A DNA stretch of 64,000 bases from Mobula hypostoma (GCF_963921235.1 NC_086097.1:63738001-63802000); one strand, 5' to 3'; counted from the stretch's first letter, positions 22,462 through 61,354 are shown. Notes: generated by a model from the sequence alone, not told the origin. Made by a program: numbers and translations.

Positions 22462-24631
22462 TCTTCCTAGAGATGCTGCGTTCACCAGCAACGTTTATGT
22501 GTGTTGCTTGAAATTCCAGTATCTGCAGATTCCCTCGTGTTTGCGAATAAGAAGGCATTGTTGGATTAGATGATAATAATTGTTATTTTCCTTGTGCTTG
22601 TTTGTATTTTATATAATTACCAATGTATACACAATTGTTCAGTGTGTTTCCTAGTAGTCACAGTTCTTAGTATTCTAGAAGTTTCTTCGTTACCATAATA
22701 TTTGAATAGGGACCATCTGATTGGTTAACTTGTATCCATAAAATTTGAATGGAATGTCTGTTAACCATGGGAATTCAACAAAATAAGAAAACGGTATAAG
22801 AAGACTTGTAGACTTGGCTTGTAGACTCTCGCTCTCTTTCTTTTGTTCTTTTCCTGCCATTGCCTTCTCTCACTGAATCAAAGTGCATTGTACAGGGCTT
22901 CGAGACAAACTGAAGCAATATCAATAAGTTCAGCAGAAACCACAAGAGGGCGGTCCTGCCGGTGACGCTTCCTGGGAATTGCCCTCTATGTTGGACAGTC
23001 CTCCGGAACAACACCACCATCTGAATTCTTACAACATGGACATGACATGGACTCTACAGTGGCCTCTAGCAACTCAAGTGAGGATGACAGTGATGAAACA
23101 GTAGGATTGGCAGCTATGTCACAACTTGGTCCAATAAAGACCAAGGGAGTGAACTCATGCAGGACTGAAGAAAGAACCTATGAAAGGAGACAGATGGTTT
23201 TCCATCAACCCAGAAAAAAAAAGATAAATGGTCCAAAGAAGTTCCACATCCTAAAAAAATGAACCTGGGCTGAGCTCCAACATATCAAAAACATATATAA
23301 ACTGCACCCATATGATGGCATCCAAATTTTGATTTTGGTGTCTTCTCAGCAAATCAGACAGTTGACTCGTAGTTGGCAACAACATGGGAGATGATAAACA
23401 AAATCGAAAGATTGGAGGAAAGTAGTTGATCGCAAGCAGAAGATTTCTGAAGATGATTCTGAATATGAGGACCAATACAGGACAGCATGGTTAAAATATC
23501 AAAGAGTTCCGGGAGTAAATGAAGAGAACATTGTGGTAATGAAGCCAACATAAAGATAACCTACATATGGTCCCCTGAAGTCATTTTTTATGGATGGCTT
23601 GAAACTAGACATTGCTAAAATGGTGAAATGGAGTTGGAGTGAAGTTAGTGTTCCATACAGTGAGCTAGTGCAAGCCACTGAACAAGTGGGCTAAGATATC
23701 AAAATCTGAATAAGATCATCACGGGGGTCAGTTACCTGTTGATCATCAGCCACTGACCATGGGTCAACAGTCATTGTTTGCTAGTCAACAGCCACAGCTG
23801 CTGCCAACAACCGAAAGAGGCTGGACTGGAATTCACCATGTACATCGCAGCAGTCTCAGTCTGAGACATACCCCTAAGGCCAATCCCTAAAGCAAAGTGT
23901 CACTTGTGTGGTGAGAAAGGACATTGGGTTCTAAGTTACTGGTATAGGAAACAAGGTGGACAACAGAAATAAGCACAACTACAAGTTCAGTCCTCTGCCC
24001 CACAAAAGTTTTGGGATTCTAGTTTGATGACTCAGTTTCAACCATCGAAGTTGGATGTCATGGACATATTGTCACAGTCAAACAAATGACTGGGGCACTT
24101 TCCTGCAGCCTTTGCTTGCCTTGAGAGTGTAAAACCTAGACAACTTATATGTTAACTTATTAATTGAGAATGAATATGCTGAATTTTATTAGATTATGAT
24201 GACCATGACTGTACAAGAATAAGAACATGCCATGAAGATGCAAATTATTACAAAGGAAGCACCTTTTTCAAGCCCAAATCTGATTCTGTACACCGATGAG
24301 AAGTGAATTCAAATGGCTGGATGGGCTGTTATTTCTGAGACTGAAGAGCTGTCATCAGGAAGAATGGCTCCAGGAACCTCTATGCAAGAGGCAGAACTGA
24401 AAGCTCAGACTGAAGCCAGTAATGTGGCAGAAGGAAGATCGGCTGATATTGACACAGAATCTTGATATGCTTTTGGAGTTTTTCATGATTTCGGAGACTT
24501 AATGGATACAAAGGGGATTCCTTACAGCTGTAGGAACCCCAATCAAGAATGACCAACTAGTGCAAGAACTCATGAATGTAATACAGTCATCAGAAGTGGT
24601 TGTATTAAAATGTAAAAGCCACTCCAAAATG

Positions 24632-25299
24632 AATCAGTTGGTCAGTTACATCTGAATCTTAATGAGTTGCAGATTTTTGTTTTCTCAGTCATTGCTTCAT
24701 TTAGTGTTTTTTCCTCCCTGGGTTGTGTTTTGGAAGAGTACTTCAAGCAGTTTGCCTCAAGGCTCAGATCTTCACTGATAATATTTATTTCGGGGAAAAG
24801 CGTATCTTAACATCTTTGCATAAACTGCCTGCCCAGCTGCCTTCTTGTCACATTTCTTTGTTACACTTCCATCTATACATAAATGGAAAGATGTCTTATT
24901 GAGCAATGAGTAGACCTGTCCTGTGGGATTTGTCCTAAAACAGGGTTTTCATTGCACTTGGGCCACAGTTCCATTGTACCTTGACCAAGCGGTTTTGGTT
25001 GTAGGGCTGATACAGATTAAAGAAATGGGTTATGCAATAGGGCTATTAAAACCACTGGTTTGTTTATAAACTGAATTTGTGATGGTGAAGTTGTCTTTGT
25101 CTTTATGTAACTTACCATTTTAAAGCTGAGTTATTGATAATGTTTAACTAAGCAGTTGTATGTTCATATTTTAACTGGTTTGATCACAGATTTACTAAAG
25201 ATACAGCACAATTCAAAGATGAATTGGATGTTATGAAGTTAATTTGTAAAGGCCTCTTGACAAGTATATTTAAAAACCAGATTGACAATCTTCGGACCA
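24632..25299 (+). pseudogene. Inverted duplicate of TRAPPC6B intron 2 3' part plus most of exon 3
   Basis: Aligns by eye with the reverse complement of 28455-29128; exon copy 25190-25299 reads [36 protein letters not shown], 11 differences in 110 nt, acceptor kept, donor missing. Confidence 0.93.
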
Positions 25300-25596
25300 G
25301 TTTACTTGTATAAGAGCAATCATTAGTACAGCAGTTCAAGTACATGAAAGGGTGCCTACTTAGAAAGACAATTTATTGAACAATGACATAATCCTATGAA
25401 TACCCTTTGATATTTCCATAATTTAGGTTTTTTTTATTTTTAGATACCTAATATAGATTCCACAAGTTTTTCTTCCTCTGAATTTTCTGATTTTGAATGT
25501 ATAATTTATAATCAAAGAGGGGAATATTGGATTATACTGTATAATTGTTATTTTCTTTGTAATTTAACTTCCTTGTGTATGTTTAATTTTACAAAA

Positions 25597-26200
25597 TTAG
25601 ATTAGATTAGATTCAACTTTATTGTCATTGTGCCCAGTACAGATAACAAAGCCAATGAAATGCAGTTAGCATCTGATCAGAAATGCAAAGACTAGTGTTA
25701 TTTACAAAATAACTGCAAATTAAAAAAGTGCTTTAGCACACAAATACAAACATTTGTATAAAAGTACTGAGACAGTACAATACGGATGCAATACTTCTCA
25801 GCACTGTGATGAGAGGTTCAGCAGGGTCACAGCCTCAGGGATGAAGCTCTTCCTGTGCCTGCTGGTGCAGGAGCGGAGGCTCCTGTAGCACCTACCGGAT
25901 GGGAGGAGAGTAACATGCCCACCATGGTTACAGTGAGATGCATCCTTGATAACGCTTTTTGTCCTGCCCAGGCAGCGTTTATGGTAGATGTTCTCAATGG
26001 TGGGCAATTGGGTGCCGATAATCTGCTGGGCAGTTTTCACCACACGCTGGAGTGCTTTGCGGTTCGATACGGGACAATTGCCATACCACACTGAGATGCA
26101 GTTGGTGAGTATGCTCTCAACGGTACAGCAGTAAAAGTCCATCGGTATCCTGGGACAGAGGTGAGCTTTCTTGATGCTCCGCAGGAAATAAAGGCGCTGT
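25597..26200 (-). mobile_element. Rex1/Babar-like LINE fragment nested in the ERV 3' LTR
   Basis: ORF 25798..26142 DFYCCTVESILTNCISVWYGNC...ALQRVVKTAQ; (TCTAA)n tail; LTR homology resumes on both sides. Confidence 0.85.
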
Positions 26201-26784
26201 TGTTACCTATGTATATGCTGTTGTTCAATGTGTTTCCCAGTGGTTACAGTTCTTCAGTATTATTCTGGAAGTTTCTTGGGTATCACATTATTTGAATGGG
26301 GAATATCTGATTTGTTAATTTTTACCTACAAAATTTGAATAGAATGCCTGTTTCCATGGAAATTCAATGGAATTAGTAAAGTAGCATAAGAAGAACAAAG
26401 TACATTGGCTCTCGCTCTCTTTCGTTCCTTTTCCACTATCACCTGCTCTCACTAGAAGGCTCTGTTCTCGCTACTCTTCTTTCCAATCCCTTTGTTCTCT
26501 TAGCGCTTAATAAACAATCGTGAGCAAGTAGTTTTATGCCTCATACTTGACTTCTGAAGAATCTTAGATCAAAAGTATCAGTATCCAACAGCAGAGACTG
26601 GTAATATGTTAGAGCCTGGAGGTAGTCAATTCCTTTGCTTAAAGGGATGTCCCGCCATTTGTGCTGCATTTTGTCATATACACCACTACAAGAAATTACA
26701 ATGCTTGTAACAACTTGCCATAGTAGCAGTTCAGCAAGATACTATAACACCTGGTCTGCAGTCCATACTGACTGGCATTATATA

Positions 26785-27545
26785 GTCTGTCTGTCTGTCT
26801 AGGTACCATATCTGATGTGGACTTTGACCATGGTTTTCCATATAGATCCATCCTTCGTTTTTTGGATGACTTCTATTTCCTCGATGTGTAGCCACCTGGC
26901 TATGCTTTTGATGTACATAAGCCAAGGTCTTCCTCTAGGTTTGCTCCCCTCAATCTTTCCAGAGAGTACAAGTTTTTCTAGTTCATCTTTCCGCATGATG
27001 TGTCCTAAGAATCTGAGTTATCTTTCTCTTATTGTTGGTATGAGTGATCGAACTGCTTGGGCTCTTCTGAGAACTTCTTCATTTGATGTGTGTGTGGTCC
27101 ATGATATTTTTAACATTCTCCTGTAGAACCATAATTCAGCTGCTTCTAGTCTCTTTTCCATTGCTGGACAAATGGTCCAGCATTCATTTCCATAAGTCAC
27201 GATAGAATAAATGTAGCACTGCAGTATTCTGTTTTTAGTGTACGTGCTCATCTTTCTGTCTGTTAATATGTTCTTCATTTTTTGGAAAACTCCTTTCGCC
27301 ATTGCTATTCTGTATTTAATATCTGTGTCGCACCCGCCATTACTTATTATCAGGCTGCCAAGATATTTGAATTTGTTGACTTGTTTGATGTTTGTCTTTC
27401 CGATCTTGATCACACATTGTGTCTTCTTGGTGTTGATTGAGAGGCCTCTGCAATTACTTTCTGCTGCCACTGTAGTGAGTAGTTCTTGAAGTTTTGTTTC
27501 TGAGTCAGCTATTAGTACGAAGTGATCAGCATATCTGATGTTATG
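26785..27545 (-). mobile_element. RTE-clade LINE 3' fragment
   Basis: NIRYADH.VLIADSE.KLQ.LL, FKYLGS, ECWT...LEAAELWFYRRMLKISWT, GKIEGSKPRGRP motifs; (CAGA)n tail. Confidence 0.9.
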
Positions 27546-27994
27546 ATATATATATATACACACACACACACACACTCACTATATAGTACTCTTTTAAAAA
27601 AAAGGATTTGTGAACCTCTAGTTGGCCTATCATTTGTTATGTTTGAGATTTACATAGTACTAACAGACTTTTCCTTTCATCTTATTCCTAATAAATCATA
27701 CCATATGAAATTATCTTTGTCTTTCATCCATTGCACTGCTTCCTGTAAATTGTGGCGTGGGAGAGCAACTCTAAATCTGTTTCTTTACTGGAATTCATAA
27801 GATTAAAGGAGACTATAAAGAGAATTGCACATGCAATATTAAATTAAATGGGTTTAAAATGAGATTTTAAAAACTTGCTGGAAATTAGTTAAGTGGAAAA
27901 TGACAAAACTGGTAATGATTAGAATGTTAAGCACATAAGGTCATCATTAAGTTTTCTTGGGGATCTCATTGCATTAAATTATATATTGGTTATA

Positions 27995-28335
27995 TATAGA
28001 TAATGGTGGGGACAGCTTAACCATGATGGACTGGGCTGTACCCACTAATTTTTGTAGGATTTTCCGTTCAAGGGCATTGGTGTTTCCATTCCAGACTGTA
28101 ATACAGCTTATCAATATTCTCTCCCCTGCACATCTATAGAAGTTTGTCAAAGTTTTAGATATCATGCCAAATCTTCACAAAGTCCTAAGGAAGTAAAGGC
28201 GATGCCGTGCTTTCTTCATAATTGCACTTATGTGCTGGACCCAGGACAAGTCCTCCAAAATAATAACACTGAGGAATTTAAAGTTGATGACCCTCTCCAT
28301 CTCTGATCCTCCAATGAAGACTGGCTCATGGACAT
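27995..28335 (-). mobile_element. Rex1/Babar-like LINE fragment
   Basis: KTLTNFYRCAGERILISCITVWNGN reading (ORF 27974..28165). Confidence 0.75.
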
Positions 28336-28446
28336 CTATTTCTCAATTTGTTGTGATAATAACAATTTATGTCAGCAAATTTCAGGTTATTTTAACTACA
28401 CAACTACTTAATTAATAGGTACTTTAAACATCTGAGAACAATATAC

Positions 28447-28564
28447 CTGATGGTTGGTCCGAAGATTGTCGATCTGCTTTTTAAATACACTTGTCCAGAA
28501 GTCTTTACAAATAAACTTCATAACATCCAATTCATCCTTGAATCGTGCTGTATCTTTAGTGAAC
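28447..28564 (-). CDS. TRAPPC6B: TRAPPC6B exon 3
   Basis: 118 nt, AG/GT bounded, (R)[39 protein letters not shown]. Confidence 0.97.
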
Positions 28565-29688
28565 CTGTGATCAAACCAGACAATATATGAACATCCAAAT
28601 GCTTTGTTAAAGATTATCAATAATTCAGCTTTAAAATATGTTACCTGAAGACAAAGCAACTTCACTATCAAAAATTCAGTTTACAACAAACCAGTGGTTT
28701 TAATCCCCTAACGCATAACCTATTTTCTTTTATCCAAATCAGCCCTACAACCAAAACCACTTAGACAAGGTACAATGTTACTGTGGCCCAAGTGCAAAGT
28801 GCTCTCTTTTTTGGGACAAATCCCACAAGACATGTCTACTCATTTCTCAGTAAGACATCCTTCCATTTATGTGTAGATGGAAGTATAACAAAGAAACGTG
28901 GAGGCAGCTGGGCAGGCAATTTATGCAAAGATGGTAAGATATTACTTTTTTCTGCAAAACAAAAGCTCTATCAATGCAGACCTGAGCCCAGAGGCAAAAT
29001 GAAAACCACAACCTGTTTGAAGTCCTCTGCCAACACACAAACCAGGGAGAAAACAGTAAATGAAGTTACGACTCAGAAAACAAAAACTGCAACTCATTAA
29101 GATCCAGATGAAACTGACCAACTGGATTAAAAGCAGCCAAGAAGAAGTTAGAAACAAGAGAAAGTCTGCAGATGCTGGAAATCCAAAGCAACACACACAA
29201 AATACTGGAGGAAACCAGCAGGCCAAGCAACATCTATGGAAAAGAGTAGTCGACGTTTTGGGCAGAGTCCCTTCATCTGGCCATTCAGCACCAATAATGT
29301 AATCCTTTATGACCAAAATATGTATATGCTTTCCAAGTGAATGAGGACTTCAAGCTTAATGAAATAAAATGTTATCCACTAAAGGTATGGGACTAACATG
29401 AATGCAACTTATATATTGATGTTAGCTATTTTTAAATTTTGCATATATAGAATTTTACTCCAATTAACAAAAATAGTCTTTCATTCCCTACAAACTCTCC
29501 CTATTAACAAATCATACATTAGTCTACTGTTGTAGGGACCATGAGTTGGAGTTGCAAATTTGCAGCCCACTCTTAAACCAACAAGCACAGCTTTCCTGAT
29601 GAAAATATACCCTCAGTAGATGATGCTGTTCACAATATAAGAATCTGTTTCTTTTTGTATTTCTTCAGAAAATACCATTGCTTATTAC

Positions 29689-29756: not shown

Positions 29757-29829
29757 CTGAGAAAAAGGAGCAGAAAAAAATAACAAGTGTGTTATTGTGG
29801 AGCATTACCAATAAAATTAGAGGAACCTA

Positions 29830-30761
29830 CAGTGGCATGCAAAAGTTTGGGCACCCCGGTCAAAATTTCTGTTACTGTGAATAGTTAAACAAGTAGAAGA
29901 TGAACTGATCTCCAAAAGTCATAAAGTTAAAGATGAAACATTCTTTTCAACATTTTAAGCAAGATTGGTGTGGACTGATGAAGTTAAAATAGAACTTTTT
30001 GGCTGCAATGAGCAAAGGTATGTTTGGAGAAAAAAGGGTGCAGAATTTCATGAAAAGAACACCTCTCCAACTGTTAAGCACGGGGGTGGATCGATCATGC
30101 TTTGGGCTTGTGTTGCAGCCAGTGGCACAGGGAATATTTCACTAGTAGAGGGAAGAATGAATTCAATTAAATACCAGCAAATTCGGGAAGCAAACATCAC
30201 ACCGTCTGTAAAAAAGCCGAAGATGAAAAGAGGATGGCTTCTACAACAGGATAATGATCCTAAACACATCTCAAAATCCACAATGGACTACCTCGAGGCG
30301 CAAGCTGGAGGTTTTGCCATGGCCCTCACAGTCCCCCAATCTAAACATCATCGAAAATCTGTGGATAAACCTCAAAAGAGCAGTGCATGCAAGACAGCCC
30401 AAGAATCTCACAGAACTAGAAGCCTTTTGCAAGGAAGAATGGGCGAAAATCCTCCAAACAAGAATTGAAAGACTCTTAGCTGGCTACAGAAAGCGTTGAT
30501 AAGCTGTGATACTTGCCAAAAGGGGTGTTACTAAGTACTGACCATGCAGGGTGGCCAAACTTTTGCTTCGGGCCCTTTTCCCTTTTTGTTATTTTGAAAC
30601 TGTAAAAGATAGAAATAAAAAGGTAATCTTGCTTAAACTATTAAAGAAATGTGTCATCTTTAACTTTATGCCTTTTGGAAATCAGGTCATCTTTTACTCG
30701 CTTAGCTATTCACAGTAACAGAAATTTTGACGAGGGGTACCCTAACTTTTGCATGCCACTG
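29830..30761 (+). mobile_element. Internally deleted Tc1 copy, same family as 809-2437
   Basis: TA TSDs, both outer TIR ends; left TIR is joined directly to the WTDE region, deleting the equivalent of ~950-1638. Confidence 0.95.
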
Positions 30762-31354
30762 TATATAGGTACTTTAGGCATCTCTTGTTAACAATAATAT
30801 CTTAAAGACTGAAAAAAAAAAGCATGAAACTAACTTGTTAATTCCACTAATACATATAATCTACAACACTGATGAAAAATTAACATAACCAAATTCAATC
30901 CTCAAACCTCAAATAAAAACTTTATATTCAGGTACCAGTCTGAGATCTGTAGGTAAGCAATCAGTTCCAATTAAACAGTACTTAATTGGCTGATTTCAAA
31001 GATTGGCTGATTGCCTGAGTCCATTACTCTGAGCACCCATGCTCACTAAATGACACTCTTTAAATTACAGAAATTTTAATATAGTCATGATCCATGTGAA
31101 TGGAAACATATGCACCCACAAGATCTAAATTAACACAAAATTTAAAAAAACTTTTTCTTTAGTTTTTGAGCTTCAAGTGCCTCCAAATACCTATTAATTC
31201 AGATTTGATAGGATATGAAATATCATCACAAATGACTTTTCTCCAAAACAAAATGCAATATTCAGAGTTTGAAGACATTCTGACTGTTTTAGGCCAGAGC
31301 AAGAGGAAGTCACATATGTTCTTGTGGAATAAAGAACTAGAAATATATCAAAAG

Positions 31355-52590: not shown

Positions 52591-52915
52591 CAAGGGGTGA
52601 TTGATAAGGTCATGGCCTAAAGTAGAAGGAGATGAGTTATACAGCTCTTGTTACATGCATGTGCAGTTCAACGCTGAGTGAAAATGCAGAAAGTTTGAAG
52701 TTCCTCCTCATCTCCTTCTACTTTAGGCCACAAACTTATCAATCACCCCTGCTGTGGACCACTTTCTGGAGGTCCAACACGCCGACTTCTACAAAGAAGG
52801 GATCTGCATGCTTCAGGACCGCTGGACTAAGTGTGTAAATGTAGGAAAAATTAATGTGCTAGGTTTTCTAAAATTGTCTTCTACCTTAGGCCCTGAACTT
52901 ATCAATCATCCCTCG
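52591..52915 (+). mobile_element. Non-autonomous mariner element
   Basis: TA TSDs, ~36 bp TIRs (CAAGGGGTGATTGATAAG...), remnant transposase tail FYKEGICMLQDRWTKCVNVG. Confidence 0.85.
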
Positions 52916-55900
52916 TAAATGTCATTTGTGAAATTTGGCTGAATGAAAATGGCATTTTCACCTTGCAAATTCTGTGTGTAACTGGCACATCTTTTGTGTT
53001 TATTAATCACTTGTTAATGTAAGTTGTTTTATAGGCACTAATACTCTTTAGTGGTTTCAGCACAAGATTTTATTAATAAAAAATAAAATTTTGTGCTAAA
53101 GCACTAAAGGAACAGCAAGGTTGCTGCCTGAGATGCGAGAGGAACTTTTAAAACACAAGATTTTATTACTAAGCATGTATAGCATAATACAGCACTGTTT
53201 CAAGAGCACACAATGCAAATCATTGATAACCTCGGAAGGATTTTTTAAAAGTTTTTTTTCCAACTCTTGAGGCCTATGAAGTTGTACTGGTTTAGAATTG
53301 TTCTATTTTCCTTATGTGAGCGTGCTTTTGTTTTTAAGGCACCCCTTTAAAGCTGTTTGCTTATGTTTTGTATTGTTGATTGGCCCCTTAATCAATAAGA
53401 ACATGAGGAATTCCACTTCATGTTTTGAGTTTAAGGTCAGATAGTAGCTGACCCACTCTTTTCCTGCATAAGCCTATATCACTGATTAAGTTAAAATTGA
53501 GATATGTATACAAACTAAAGAATTTTAATGATTAACAATCCTTTTGGTGAAGTTACTCCTATCGGTTTGAAAAATCTGACTCATTCTAAGTCTGCAACTT
53601 CCTAGTTTTGAGGTTCCCAACAAAGGAAAACCACCTCCAACCTCTACATTTCTGAGTCTGTTAATTGTATTTCATTGAGATCACCATTTTAAGTACATTT
53701 TGGAATATCCCTGCAGATTGGCCTTCCTATTCATCTAATTACACTTGAGTTCAGTTTATGTACGAAGACACTCAGGGCCTTCTGAATATAGTAAATACTG
53801 ATAGTCTGCTATCTAGCTAGTCCAAAATCCCGAATGTTCAACATCTGGCTAGCCAGGTCCCCAGTGCTTCCTTTAGCTCATTGAGATCACTGGAAATGTA
53901 TTATTCTTCTGTTAAACATCTTAAAATAGTGATGTTAGAATACTATTGGGAATAACATACAATAATCTGAAACATCTATTTGTCCAACACCAAAGTCCCA
54001 AGTATGCCAAATTGATGCAGTTTTTCTTTACCATTGTTCTCAGTTCCATCTTTAAAACAATAAAATTTATTTTTTCCTTTCCTACTAACCAAAGAAAATT
54101 TTACATGTTTCCACATATCCATCCACTACGTTCTTCCTACCTCAAATAGCTTGTCTACGTCACCTTAAAGTCATGCTTATTACTTAGCTTTTGTTTAAAA
54201 GGCAAACCGAGTCCCCAGCCCCATAGGTATAGAGCAAAAATAACTGAGATCCTAGCACTGACCCTGGTAGGGCACCACAAGGTAGCTTGTGATCCCGAAA
54301 CACTGATTATGATCTAATGTTTTGTTTATTAACCATTTCTCCTCTGTGCTTGTTTATTAAACGTAATCCAATGATCTAATCTTGTGATAAGAGTATTTTA
54401 TAATAGTCTAAATCTACTAGTTCTAGCATTACATACGCTGTTCCTCTTCATAAATAAACTTCATTGTTCTGTTCTGTCATGATTTTCTTTGTGCCTGTCA
54501 GAAATAATTTGTAATATTGAATTGAGCTGGTTAATGTATAGTTCAGTATTTTCAGTTCCTATTTGGAAGGATCAGAATCTGACTATTCAGTTGGATCTCC
54601 ATGAAATCTAAGAAATTCTGAAAAATCAAAATCAATCCTTCCACTAGGTACCTGTTTTTAAGCTATTGGACATTAAGCCTCAGTTAGCTTAAATGTTGGC
54701 CATTGCTCATCTTGCAACATTTAATCTAGTTTTCTGATAGATTTAGCCTATTTTCCCATAATAATTAGTTTACTGTTTAATAAGACTGCAATTCTGGACT
54801 TGAACTTTCAAACTGTTTATTTTCTCATTATTAAATCTCTAATTTGTAAACAATAATGCTACAGATTTTTCTGTTTCATTAAATAGAGGGCTATGGGTAA
54901 CCCTAGGTTACTTCTAAAGTAAGTACATGTTCTGCACAGCATTGTGGGCCAAAGGGCCTGTATTGTGCTGTAGGTTTTCTATGTTTCTATTTACTTTGCA
55001 CACTTCAAATCCAGTTGAACTATTAAAAAAGACATTTTAATATTAAATTATAGTATTATTACCTTTTAATGATCAGTGTGATGACCAAAAGCATCATTGC
55101 CTTAAAACTTAGAAAGATATTGGGTACAACAGGCTAGTAAAGAGAACTAAATCTGCTTTGTTTTACTTCATTTGCAATTGTTTTATTATCACTGTCTTGA
55201 GATTTGTTGTTTTGTGACAGCAGTACAGCGCAAGGACGTAAGCTTACTATAAACTATCAAATAAAATACTGCAAAAAAAAAATAACAATTCGTACACCTT
55301 TCAGAAATCTAATGGCAGAAAGCAAGAAGCTGTTTGATTTTTAGAGTTTGGGTCTTCAGACTCCTTTATATCCTCCCCGATGGTAGGAATGGGAAGGCGT
55401 GCCCTAGACGATGAGTGTCCTTTGTGATGAATGCCACCTACTTGGGGCACTACCTTTTGACAATGTCCTCAGGGGTGAGGAAGGTTGTGCCAGTGATGGC
55501 ACGACCGTCTGCAGCCTCCTTACCAAGCTGTGATGCAATCAATAACATTAATATTCTATAGGATATTACATTTAAGCAAGCCTCATCAGAATAATGTCAC
55601 AAATGGAGAACAGTGGGGCAAGATAAGTAATGGAAATGATAAAATTGGGGATTTTCTATTTCTATAAATGCTAAGTTTTTTTTTAGAAAGTGACTTGCTC
55701 TTAAATATTGATTTCATGGGAGAAGTTACAGATATGAGACTCACGCATGTCCTTCCTGACGTGAGTTGTTGTTTGACTTATGGATTTGCCAGTGTATTTT
55801 GAAAGGCAGCTTACTTTTAACTCTTGGGTATTATTATTAAGCTAATCTACTGTTCTAAAGGGGCACCTAATCGTAAATATACTTCATTCCTTGTAATGCT

Positions 55901-59382: not shown

Positions 59383-60167
59383 GTGCATGTGCTTGATACA
59401 GTGGTCTCCCAATTTAGACCACAGTTTGATTTGTGTTCTATTCTGGTACTTTTAAATTATGTTCCTCCAGAGATAAGTGCTTGGTTTGTCTTTGGTGTCA
59501 CGTTGTTCATTTTCAATTGTTCAATAAAATGCAACGACTTAAGTTGGAGGGGGTTGGCGCGATGCTCAGTTGTCATCCTGAAAAGCTTTTTGAGTAAGAT
59601 TTTCCACCTATGTAATCAGAAGTTAAGACTGTTAGTTAAAATTACTACTTCCAAATTAATTTTTTAAAAGTACAAGTCTTAAGTTGGTAAATTCACCCAG
59701 TCTTGAGTATATAATGATTAAATTCGCATGAATTGCTGGAGCCAAAAAAGTCCTGATAATCTTCACTTATCCAAACCAGATTAATAATTTGTCTTGGATT
59801 AGTAGTATTTGTTTACATAAGTGGGTGAATTACAAAATGAACAATTGGGGGTTTGCTTTTGCAGCTTTGTGTTGGTTCCTAGAGATCCTGTCTGATTATT
59901 TCAAGTTTACTTTATTTTCCCTGTAAGTTTTGCATTTTTCAGGCTATTGAGTAACTCGGGAGGAACTACTATGGCAGTAGAAAAGCTGTTGGTTAGCTTA
60001 TAGAGTGCAGATCTTGTGCATAGAGTGCAAATAATGTTTCTGATGTAAAAGCCTCCCGTGAATTCATCCTTTTGTTCCTCGCTGCTCGAATACAGTTTTA
60101 CTTTTTTCGTTGAAAGCAAATATTTTAATTTGTATGTATTAGCAGGTATTTGTTTTTAAATCTGCAG

Positions 60168-61354
60168 GTATTTTCGAGCACAGGCGCCTGGAGTTTGCAG
60201 ATCAGATTAACAGAATGGAAGTTAGACCTAGACGTCAGTCATTGAAGGAAAAAGAACAGCGAGAGTTGCAGAATGAAGAACAACAAAACGTGGAACAGGA
60301 GGGTAAGGTGGCTCATCATGAGGAGATGGAGGAATTGGGTAACCAGAACAATGATGTAGAAATGGAGGCAGCAGAAGAGGAAATGGAAGTAGGTACAGAT
60401 AAGTGTGATTCAGAGAAGCAGCAGGAAAAGCAACAGGAGGAGGAAGCTGAAGAAGAGGAAGAGCTAGAGGAAGGGGAAAGCAATAGTCAGCCAGAAAGTG
60501 TGCCTGTTGATGGTAAGGAAGCAAGCCAGAATACAGAGAATGATCAGGATATGGTAGAGGAAGTAGATGAGTGTAGAGAGGAGAGAGTAGAAGAGGTTTG
60601 TAAGGAGCCTGAACCTGAGCCTGAGCCTGAACCTGAACCTGAGCCTGAGATGGAGCCAGAGCCAGAGCCTGAACCTAAGCCTGAACCTGAGCCTGAGCCA
60701 GAGCCAGAGCCTGAGATGGTACCTGAACCGGAGCACAAACTAGAATCTGAACCAGGGCCTGAATCCGAACTTGAAAGTTCGGTTGGGCATGAGCTGGAAC
60801 AAGAGAATCCTGCCACTACTCAAGCTGCAGAATCGCAGGTAGAACCAGTTCGGGTGTCGCCAAAGAGGAGCAGGAGTAAAAGTAGCAGTAGGAGCAAAAG
60901 CAGAGGTCGTGAGAAGGCACAGAGTAAGAGTAGGAGTCGGAGCAGCAGTAGTTCCAGCTCTGGCAGTAGTTCGAGCAGCACCAGCAGTGGTAGCAGCTCA
61001 AGCAGTGGCAGCAGTAGCAGGAGCAGTTCCAGCACAAGTAGCAGCAGTGGCAGCAGTAGCAGAGACAGCAGTACGAGCAGCACCAGCAGTAGCGAGAGCC
61101 GGAGCCGAAGCCGGAGTCGGGGTCACAGCAGAGACAGAAAGCGCAGGAGGAGCTCAGATCAAAAACGTAGAGGTATTTCAAGTGCAGATAAGGACCGTAA
61201 GTCATCAAAAACCAGTAGCAAAGATTTAAAAGGCTCACGGGAAAAGAGTTCAAGGTTAGATAGAAAGAGGTCTATATCAGAAGGTCGTTCAGGCAAAAGG
61301 TCGTCGCGGACTGACAGAGATCATAAATTGGACAGAAAAGATAAAAAGCACTAA
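60168..61354 (+). CDS. PNN: Pinin exon 9 (Glu-rich, PE repeat, poly-Ser and RS domains)
   Basis: ctgcag|GT ATT TTC GAG..., in frame with ORF 60215..61354; ATTAAA candidates at 61570, 61796 and 61840. Confidence 0.96.
60605..60733 (+). repeat. Coding hexamer repeat (GARCCW)n encoding (EP)n
   Basis: About 20 degenerate EP units inside pinin exon 9. Confidence 0.9.

Follow-up and report, generated by a model that had tools for sequence, protein, structure and literature searches.

Among local DNA rearrangements, the layout AD'CDE is named 'interspersed inverted duplication with deletion' in excerpts of a preprint (bioRxiv 10.1101/200170), and local two-jump events combining loss with inverted duplication are described in excerpted text of Li et al. 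2020 (PMC7025897). Insertions accompanied by deletion at the site and by 1-3 bp of microhomology figure in an excerpt of PMC5120786, and, according to part of a survey of 1,019 human genomes, inverted duplications are the commonest non-MEI inversion class (277 of 733, median 284 bp; PMC12350158). Here we describe a locus of Mobula hypostoma at which a decayed endogenous retrovirus (ERV) carries an inverted copy of part of TRAPPC6B, the gene in which it sits. Among the literature matches listed, with supplements outside the scope of the search, there was no report of this TRAPPC6B/ERV locus.

The window, by which we mean the whole 64,000-nt stretch analysed (NC_086097.1:63738001-63802000), contains all six coding exons of TRAPPC6B, as judged by open frames and splice signals, exon 6 having been located from a short motif alone. 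Exon 3 of this gene, 28564-28447, is the source exon; it matches Pfam TRAPP, and 37 of its 39 amino acids are identical to human 6B (E 1e-21, versus E 3e-13 for 6A). The ERV occupies 22559-26590 (+) and lies antisense within intron 3. The features of gene and element are as follows.

15823-40148 (-): TRAPPC6B coding exons, 40148-40068, 29756-29689, 28564-28447, 20610-20527, 17897-17804 and about 15854-15823
28455-29124 (-): source segment, the end of intron 2 and exon 3 of intact TRAPPC6B
22559-22874 (+): truncated 5' LTR, U3 and likely the start of R, starting TGTTGGAT, its alignment with the 3' LTR ending at 22874 (= 26453)
22875-23990 (+): gag remnant with many stops, a capsid-like region and a CCHC zinc knuckle at about 23895-23930 (zf-CCHC_2 E 0.0017, below cut-off)
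24140-24195 (+): protease start, ending at a deletion of the remaining protease and RT (by-eye comparison with two relatives)
24196-24634 (+): end of the RT connection and RNase H remnant, cut before its C-terminus (Pfam, phmmer, tblastn)
24635-25189 (+): inverted copy of the 3' 560 nt of TRAPPC6B intron 2, acceptor AG kept (72 of 540 aligned sites differ, K2P 0.147)
25190-25299 (+): inverted copy of TRAPPC6B exon 3, 110 of 118 nt (11 of 110 differ; Pfam TRAPP E 1e-5)
25300-25513 (+): 3' spacer of the ERV, possibly env tail and 3' UTR, at which multi-copy depth starts again
25514-25524 (+): polypurine tract AAAGAGGGGAA, directly 5' of the 3' LTR
25525-26590 (+): 3' LTR, ending ATCCAACA, then GCAG
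25590-26202 (strand not assigned): high-copy insert splitting the 3' LTR (depth 1e4-1e6, loose ends at 26202)

Elsewhere in the window, 792-2441 and 29812-30765 hold a pair of elements that are related (about 93% alike), carry long terminal inverted repeats and are presumably Tc1/mariner-like; the second is internally shorter and situated in TRAPPC6B intron 1. A 403-aa open frame at 60143-61354, with Glu-Pro repeats, a Ser/Arg-rich tail and only a low-complexity match in Pfam, is taken by us to be the last exon of pinin (PNN), presumably the usual neighbour of TRAPPC6B. A short hairpin at 52593-52750 has 44-nt arms that are 93% complementary, with 70 nt between them, and 52878-52917 adds another inverted match.

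The outer TG...CA ends of the ERV are intact and form an 8-bp terminal inverted repeat, and the flanks, GCAT on the left and GCAG on the right, match at three of four positions, a likely 4-bp target-site duplication with one change. Judged by its sequence features (paired TG...CA LTRs, polypurine tract, short target duplication and RNase H relatives), the element is class I-like. The named relatives come from Callorhinchus, Leucoraja, Amblyraja and bony fishes (teleosts); of six relatives scanned, three carry MLVIN_C (MLV-type integrase C-terminus) and one Gag_p30. The U3/R position in the 5' LTR is presumed from its motifs, and the capsid likeness of the gag remnant was judged by eye, its reading giving no Pfam match. 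The 3' spacer may resemble an env tail; its reading had no protein match in Pfam or word-indexed protein searches. The insert in the 3' LTR is one we take to be LINE-like. Just to the right of the ERV lies a high-copy insert, 26787-27593; a contig of a related organism (organism C) joins 26786 to 27594, and the insert, being absent there, is younger than the ERV.

Three internal losses are seen in the provirus: at 22874/22875 (most of the 5' R-U5, the primer site and the gag start), at about 24195 (protease-RT, positioned by eye against relatives), and from within RNase H as far as the 3' spacer. The first of these leaves the 5' LTR without most of R, U5, the primer site and the leader. A normally integrated provirus has R, U5 and a primer site. 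Reverse transcription and integration in their normal course hardly explain the absence of these parts, and at least one rearrangement in place is therefore likely at this locus; the 5' R-U5/primer-site deletion likely arose after integration. This deletion, the protease-RT deletion and the splitting of the 3' LTR by a high-copy insert add to a preliminary description of the locus, whose account of an ERV at 22559-26590 carrying a TRAPPC6B intron 2/exon 3 piece, followed by a return to a short spacer, polypurine tract and 3' LTR, is confirmed here.

The left edge of the host piece lies in RNase H. Readings of the remnant with X at stops match Pfam PF00075 at E 2e-4 and 0.01, both under the curated cut-off, with the profile matched to position 125 of 141; phmmer, with E up to 0.001, matched 263 proteins (best E 6e-17, best identity 56%), while a word-indexed protein search with the same reading gave no match. 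Among 81 tblastn alignment ends past 24560, 30 stop at 24634 and 18 continue to 24646, four codons into the host piece. The extent of the profile match and the tblastn ends together indicate that the host piece begins within the RNase H C-terminus. Thus the switch out of viral sequence, previously placed directly after the RNase H remnant, does occur, and its break point falls inside the domain, at 24634/24635. Relatives continue from RNase H into integrase, and tblastn with 157 proteins detected no RT or integrase in the element, in agreement with the earlier proposal that the host piece stands in place of integrase; sequence was therefore lost at the insertion site.

Self-comparison of the window aligns 24635-25299 in inverted orientation to 29124-28455, at 82.8% identity over 685 columns with 11 gap openings and 83 differing sites. 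The copy is 665 bp long, and 3155 nt separate the two arms. The source had been given as 28455-29128; its start holds, and its other end is 29124, with 3-4 nt at the left junction shared and ambiguous. Intron 2 makes up 555 of the 665 nt and is joined to exon 3 as in the gene, i.e. unspliced. The piece lies in the sense of the virus, retains its acceptor AG and has no stop in its exon part, all as first described, and a stop follows at most five codons past the junction. Its right end falls 8 nt short of the exon 3 splice donor; one alignment hints that the copied stretch may once have run past the donor, by a few bases of intron 3, and lost 8 nt afterwards. Splicing was rejected as the source of this junction, which lies 8 nt short of the donor and has no GT. 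As to microhomology, the 3-4 nt at the left junction are common to both sequences; in a scan of viral contigs for DNA of an intact relative, 28 stretches fitted the pattern and none was confirmed. The arms show no gene conversion tract, their longest run of identity being 23 where 5000 shuffles gave a mean of 33, and no second templated piece was found elsewhere in the ERV or at its other junctions, where the best nine matches (E 0.09-0.72) are at chance level.

Assembled contigs of related organisms were aligned over 22555-29140 with an 80% identity floor in four of 24 listed runs, comprising DNA of organism B, organisms C and G (genome-sized) and a run of organism B guessed to be RNA; findings given by row refer to the 32 listed of 141,780 pieces. 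The right ERV/host junction is bridged in all three DNA-sized runs, each from a different organism and study. Bridging of the left junction by at least 31 letters is seen, among the rows listed, in one of these three runs (X9, with 32 nt on the viral side), and in X5 only 11 nt are aligned there. The LTR-gag junction (22874/22875) is bridged in organisms B and G, and the protease-RNase H junction (about 24195) in B, C and G. An assembly artefact, or a chance joining of two unrelated LTR elements, would fit the finding that no single record among the pieces listed spans the whole ERV, the 20% divergence of the LTRs and the bridging of the left junction in only one DNA-sized run. It is set against the 83 differences and 11 gaps that separate copy from source, the right junction recovered in three organisms and the left in X9, and the 8-bp terminal inverted repeat with a three-quarters matching target duplication, and we give it next to no credence. 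The bridging of junctions in related organisms makes an assembly error unlikely and the structure older than the splits between them.

The same contigs separate the host piece from the surrounding virus by depth. In two bins wholly inside the copy, depth is 12-13 (X5), 5.6-6.1 (X9) and 3.3-5.0 (X15), compared with 11.7, 8.7 and 3.4 in unique intron bins, so that the copy matches the level of the source bins and of unique intron; for RNase H, depth per bin rises to 466-494, 638-650 and 306-314, respectively. One variant at 24441 is carried by 51 (X5), 48 (X9) and 42 (X15) contigs. Contig depth is not equivalent to copy number, and sister copies, at about 80-85% identity, are near the floor and may be partly missed, although the alignment did pick up a family copy 82% alike. 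We read these data as a multi-copy ERV family with the chimera at a single locus and no sign of spread. One other family copy (X12 record 1) has more upstream sequence; with 57 differences in 326 nt it tracks the window over 24305-24630 and then continues for 94 nt unlike it. Its presence in the guessed-RNA run of organism B is a hint that some members of the family are transcribed. That run covers the source exon bin and not the copy, which is not taken as evidence on expression or editing.

Single-copy depth also bears on classical retroviral transduction, in which the host piece would have been captured elsewhere by template switching and then inserted by integrase, by chance, into its own source gene. 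The intact TG...CA outer ends and likely 4-bp target duplication are those of an integrated element, and the gross layout is the same as that of the LTR-mediated retrocopies in the excerpt of PMC5131818. Assuming a 2.4-Gb genome, a figure taken from the sizes of the runs, however, the odds that a random landing falls within 3.2 kb of the source are about 2.7e-6, and within TRAPPC6B about 1e-5, while read-through from this provirus would, from the map, give the opposite orientation of the segment. The odds and the orientation together call for a local process, and transduction is very improbable. The capture-and-spread version put forward in the preliminary description thus found no support, there being no sign of other chimeric copies; its other and more parsimonious version, a local inverted template switch after integration, is supported by the single-copy depth, the source 3.16 kb away, the retained intron and the other deletions of the provirus.

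The relative ages of copy and provirus are less simply read. K2P distances are 0.109 +/- 0.034 for the exon copy, 0.147 +/- 0.018 for the intron copy and 0.240 +/- 0.037 between the LTRs, which mismatch at 49 of 244 sites (20%, against a by-eye figure of about 17% previously). Raw distances thus differ between LTRs (20%) and intron copy (13%; p=0.019). Transversions are equally frequent in the LTR pair (16/244) and between copy and source (37/540), with a ratio of 1.04 (CI 0.58-1.88, p=1.0) that is stable over five alignment settings, whereas transitions are not (33/244 vs 35/540, p=0.002). The raw LTR-versus-copy distance was accordingly discarded as proof of a later copy, the LTR excess consisting entirely of transitions, and LTR dating at this locus would overstate age. 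Transitions in the LTR pair (22617-22874/26203-26453) occur at twice the rate seen between host copy and source, and surviving CpG sites account for only 0-2 of them.

In comparisons between species, divergence is 1.4-1.9 times higher in ERV-derived than in host-derived DNA, as calculated from 15 of the 32 rows, some of which are partly mixed or include conserved exon; left out were eight RNA rows, the rows from LINE or flank, the mixed X9 record 27, and X5 record 17 and X9 record 23, which are likely other copies of the family. Calibrated by these rates, the ages from copy and LTR are 12.7 vs 10.8, 3.38 vs 3.73 and 2.37 vs 2.45 split units, agreeing within about 20%. The similar age earlier suggested for the two events is thus upheld by transversions and rate-calibrated distances and not by raw distances, and the age of the copy is therefore close to that of the integration, or lower by up to roughly 40%.

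Within the exon copy, the 11 changes in 110 nt comprise seven amino-acid changes, three silent changes and one at the first exon base, or 7 per 88.3 non-silent sites (0.079) and 3 per 19.7 silent sites (0.152, two lineages). Its change rate of about 0.075-0.08 per lineage is the same as that of the intron, which fits neutral decay, as the preliminary description had proposed from the seven amino-acid changes among 11 differences. There is no sign of protein function.

The equality of copy and LTR ages within error speaks for capture of the piece from RNA at the home locus. On this reading, reverse transcriptase would have copied partly spliced or nascent TRAPPC6B pre-mRNA, either in a particle, with the cDNA then recombining back into the provirus already present, or while a break in that provirus was being repaired. 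Such pre-mRNA contains the entire provirus in antisense and could form a duplex with RNA of the virus, the host piece is gene-sense on the viral strand, and the end at which reverse transcription would have entered lies 8 nt from a splice donor. Drosophila BLASTOPIA chimeras always have one switch site near an exon junction in the excerpt of PMC5131818, and fission yeast elements already in place can undergo conversion by cDNA according to part of PMC11042837. Orientation does not discriminate, since an inverted local copy would be gene-sense under a DNA route too. The RNA route requires more rare steps and an intron-rich template, and many other family copies would have been available to the cDNA, yet the piece looks single-copy. 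A further point against it is that copy and source show no clear G-to-A or A-to-G bias, the counts being 16 vs 9 for C-to-T and 9 vs 9 for T-to-C. Capture from RNA at the home locus is on balance unlikely. Less likely still is the fuller proposal that the provirus captured its own gene's unspliced pre-mRNA and wrote the chimeric cDNA back into itself without integrase, leaving a lasting antisense arm that may modulate the inclusion of exon 3 or draw in ADAR editing.

The reading we favour, and hold to be probable, is a DNA-level local template switch after integration, which replaced the RNase H end, integrase and likely env by the 665-bp inverted copy. This would be a two-jump event (of FoSTeS/MMBIR type, or templated end joining) at this one locus: a fork would have stalled, or a break occurred, inside the provirus; and synthesis would have jumped to the opposite strand nearby, continued for 665 nt and jumped back several kb further on. 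Fixation of the product preceded the split of the sampled organisms. As the best reading, it accounts for the nearby inverted source, the single-copy depth, the unspliced piece, the other in-place deletions and the neutral decay. Against the DNA-level switch, the clock gives no younger copy, the layout also fits LTR-mediated capture, and the donor is 8 nt away from the right junction, a proximity with a chance of 2-9% given exon overlap, calculated post hoc.

In TRAPPC6B pre-mRNA the copy is antisense to its source. The predicted duplex of the whole arms is -862 kcal/mol, and that over acceptor and exon is -218 kcal/mol against a mean of -43 for 20 shuffles, a difference that restates complementarity. 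The predicted long antisense arm could pair with the exon 3 acceptor and exon; exon 3 is 118 nt long, so skipping would shift the frame. A long-standing antisense arm over the exon 3 acceptor of an intact TRAPPC6B amounts to a natural experiment. The locus most likely represents a known class of local rearrangement fossilised at an unusual place, real, old and shared among species, and it cautions that a host exon within an ERV can be a local repair scar mimicking retroviral gene capture. Were the RNA route to hold, the locus would show a vertebrate retroelement to have captured its host gene in cis.

Compared with class I (gamma/epsilon-like) ERVs of fishes and cartilaginous fishes, the element is alike in that its RNase H relatives carry MLVIN_C and Gag_p30; it differs in that the best identity is just 56% and RT is deleted, so that any genus-level or epsilon label would be tentative. 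The likeness to LTR-mediated retroposition, as excerpted from Tan et al. 2016 (PMC5131818), consists in a host fragment that replaces internal ORFs between two LTRs and in a junction near an exon edge. The cases in that excerpt were found by exon-exon junctions (intron loss), some of them dispersed to several sites, whereas the host piece here is mostly intron (555 of 665 nt), looks single-copy and lies 3155 nt from its source, showing neither intron loss nor an unlinked site. With interspersed inverted duplication with deletion, the locus shares the replacement of a lost stretch by an inverted nearby copy, two junctions and an intact source, and the inverted nearby copy, the local loss and the single locus (by depth) are all found here. 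It differs from the described cases in being ancient and shared among species, the deleted stretch being retroviral and the copied stretch holding a host coding exon.
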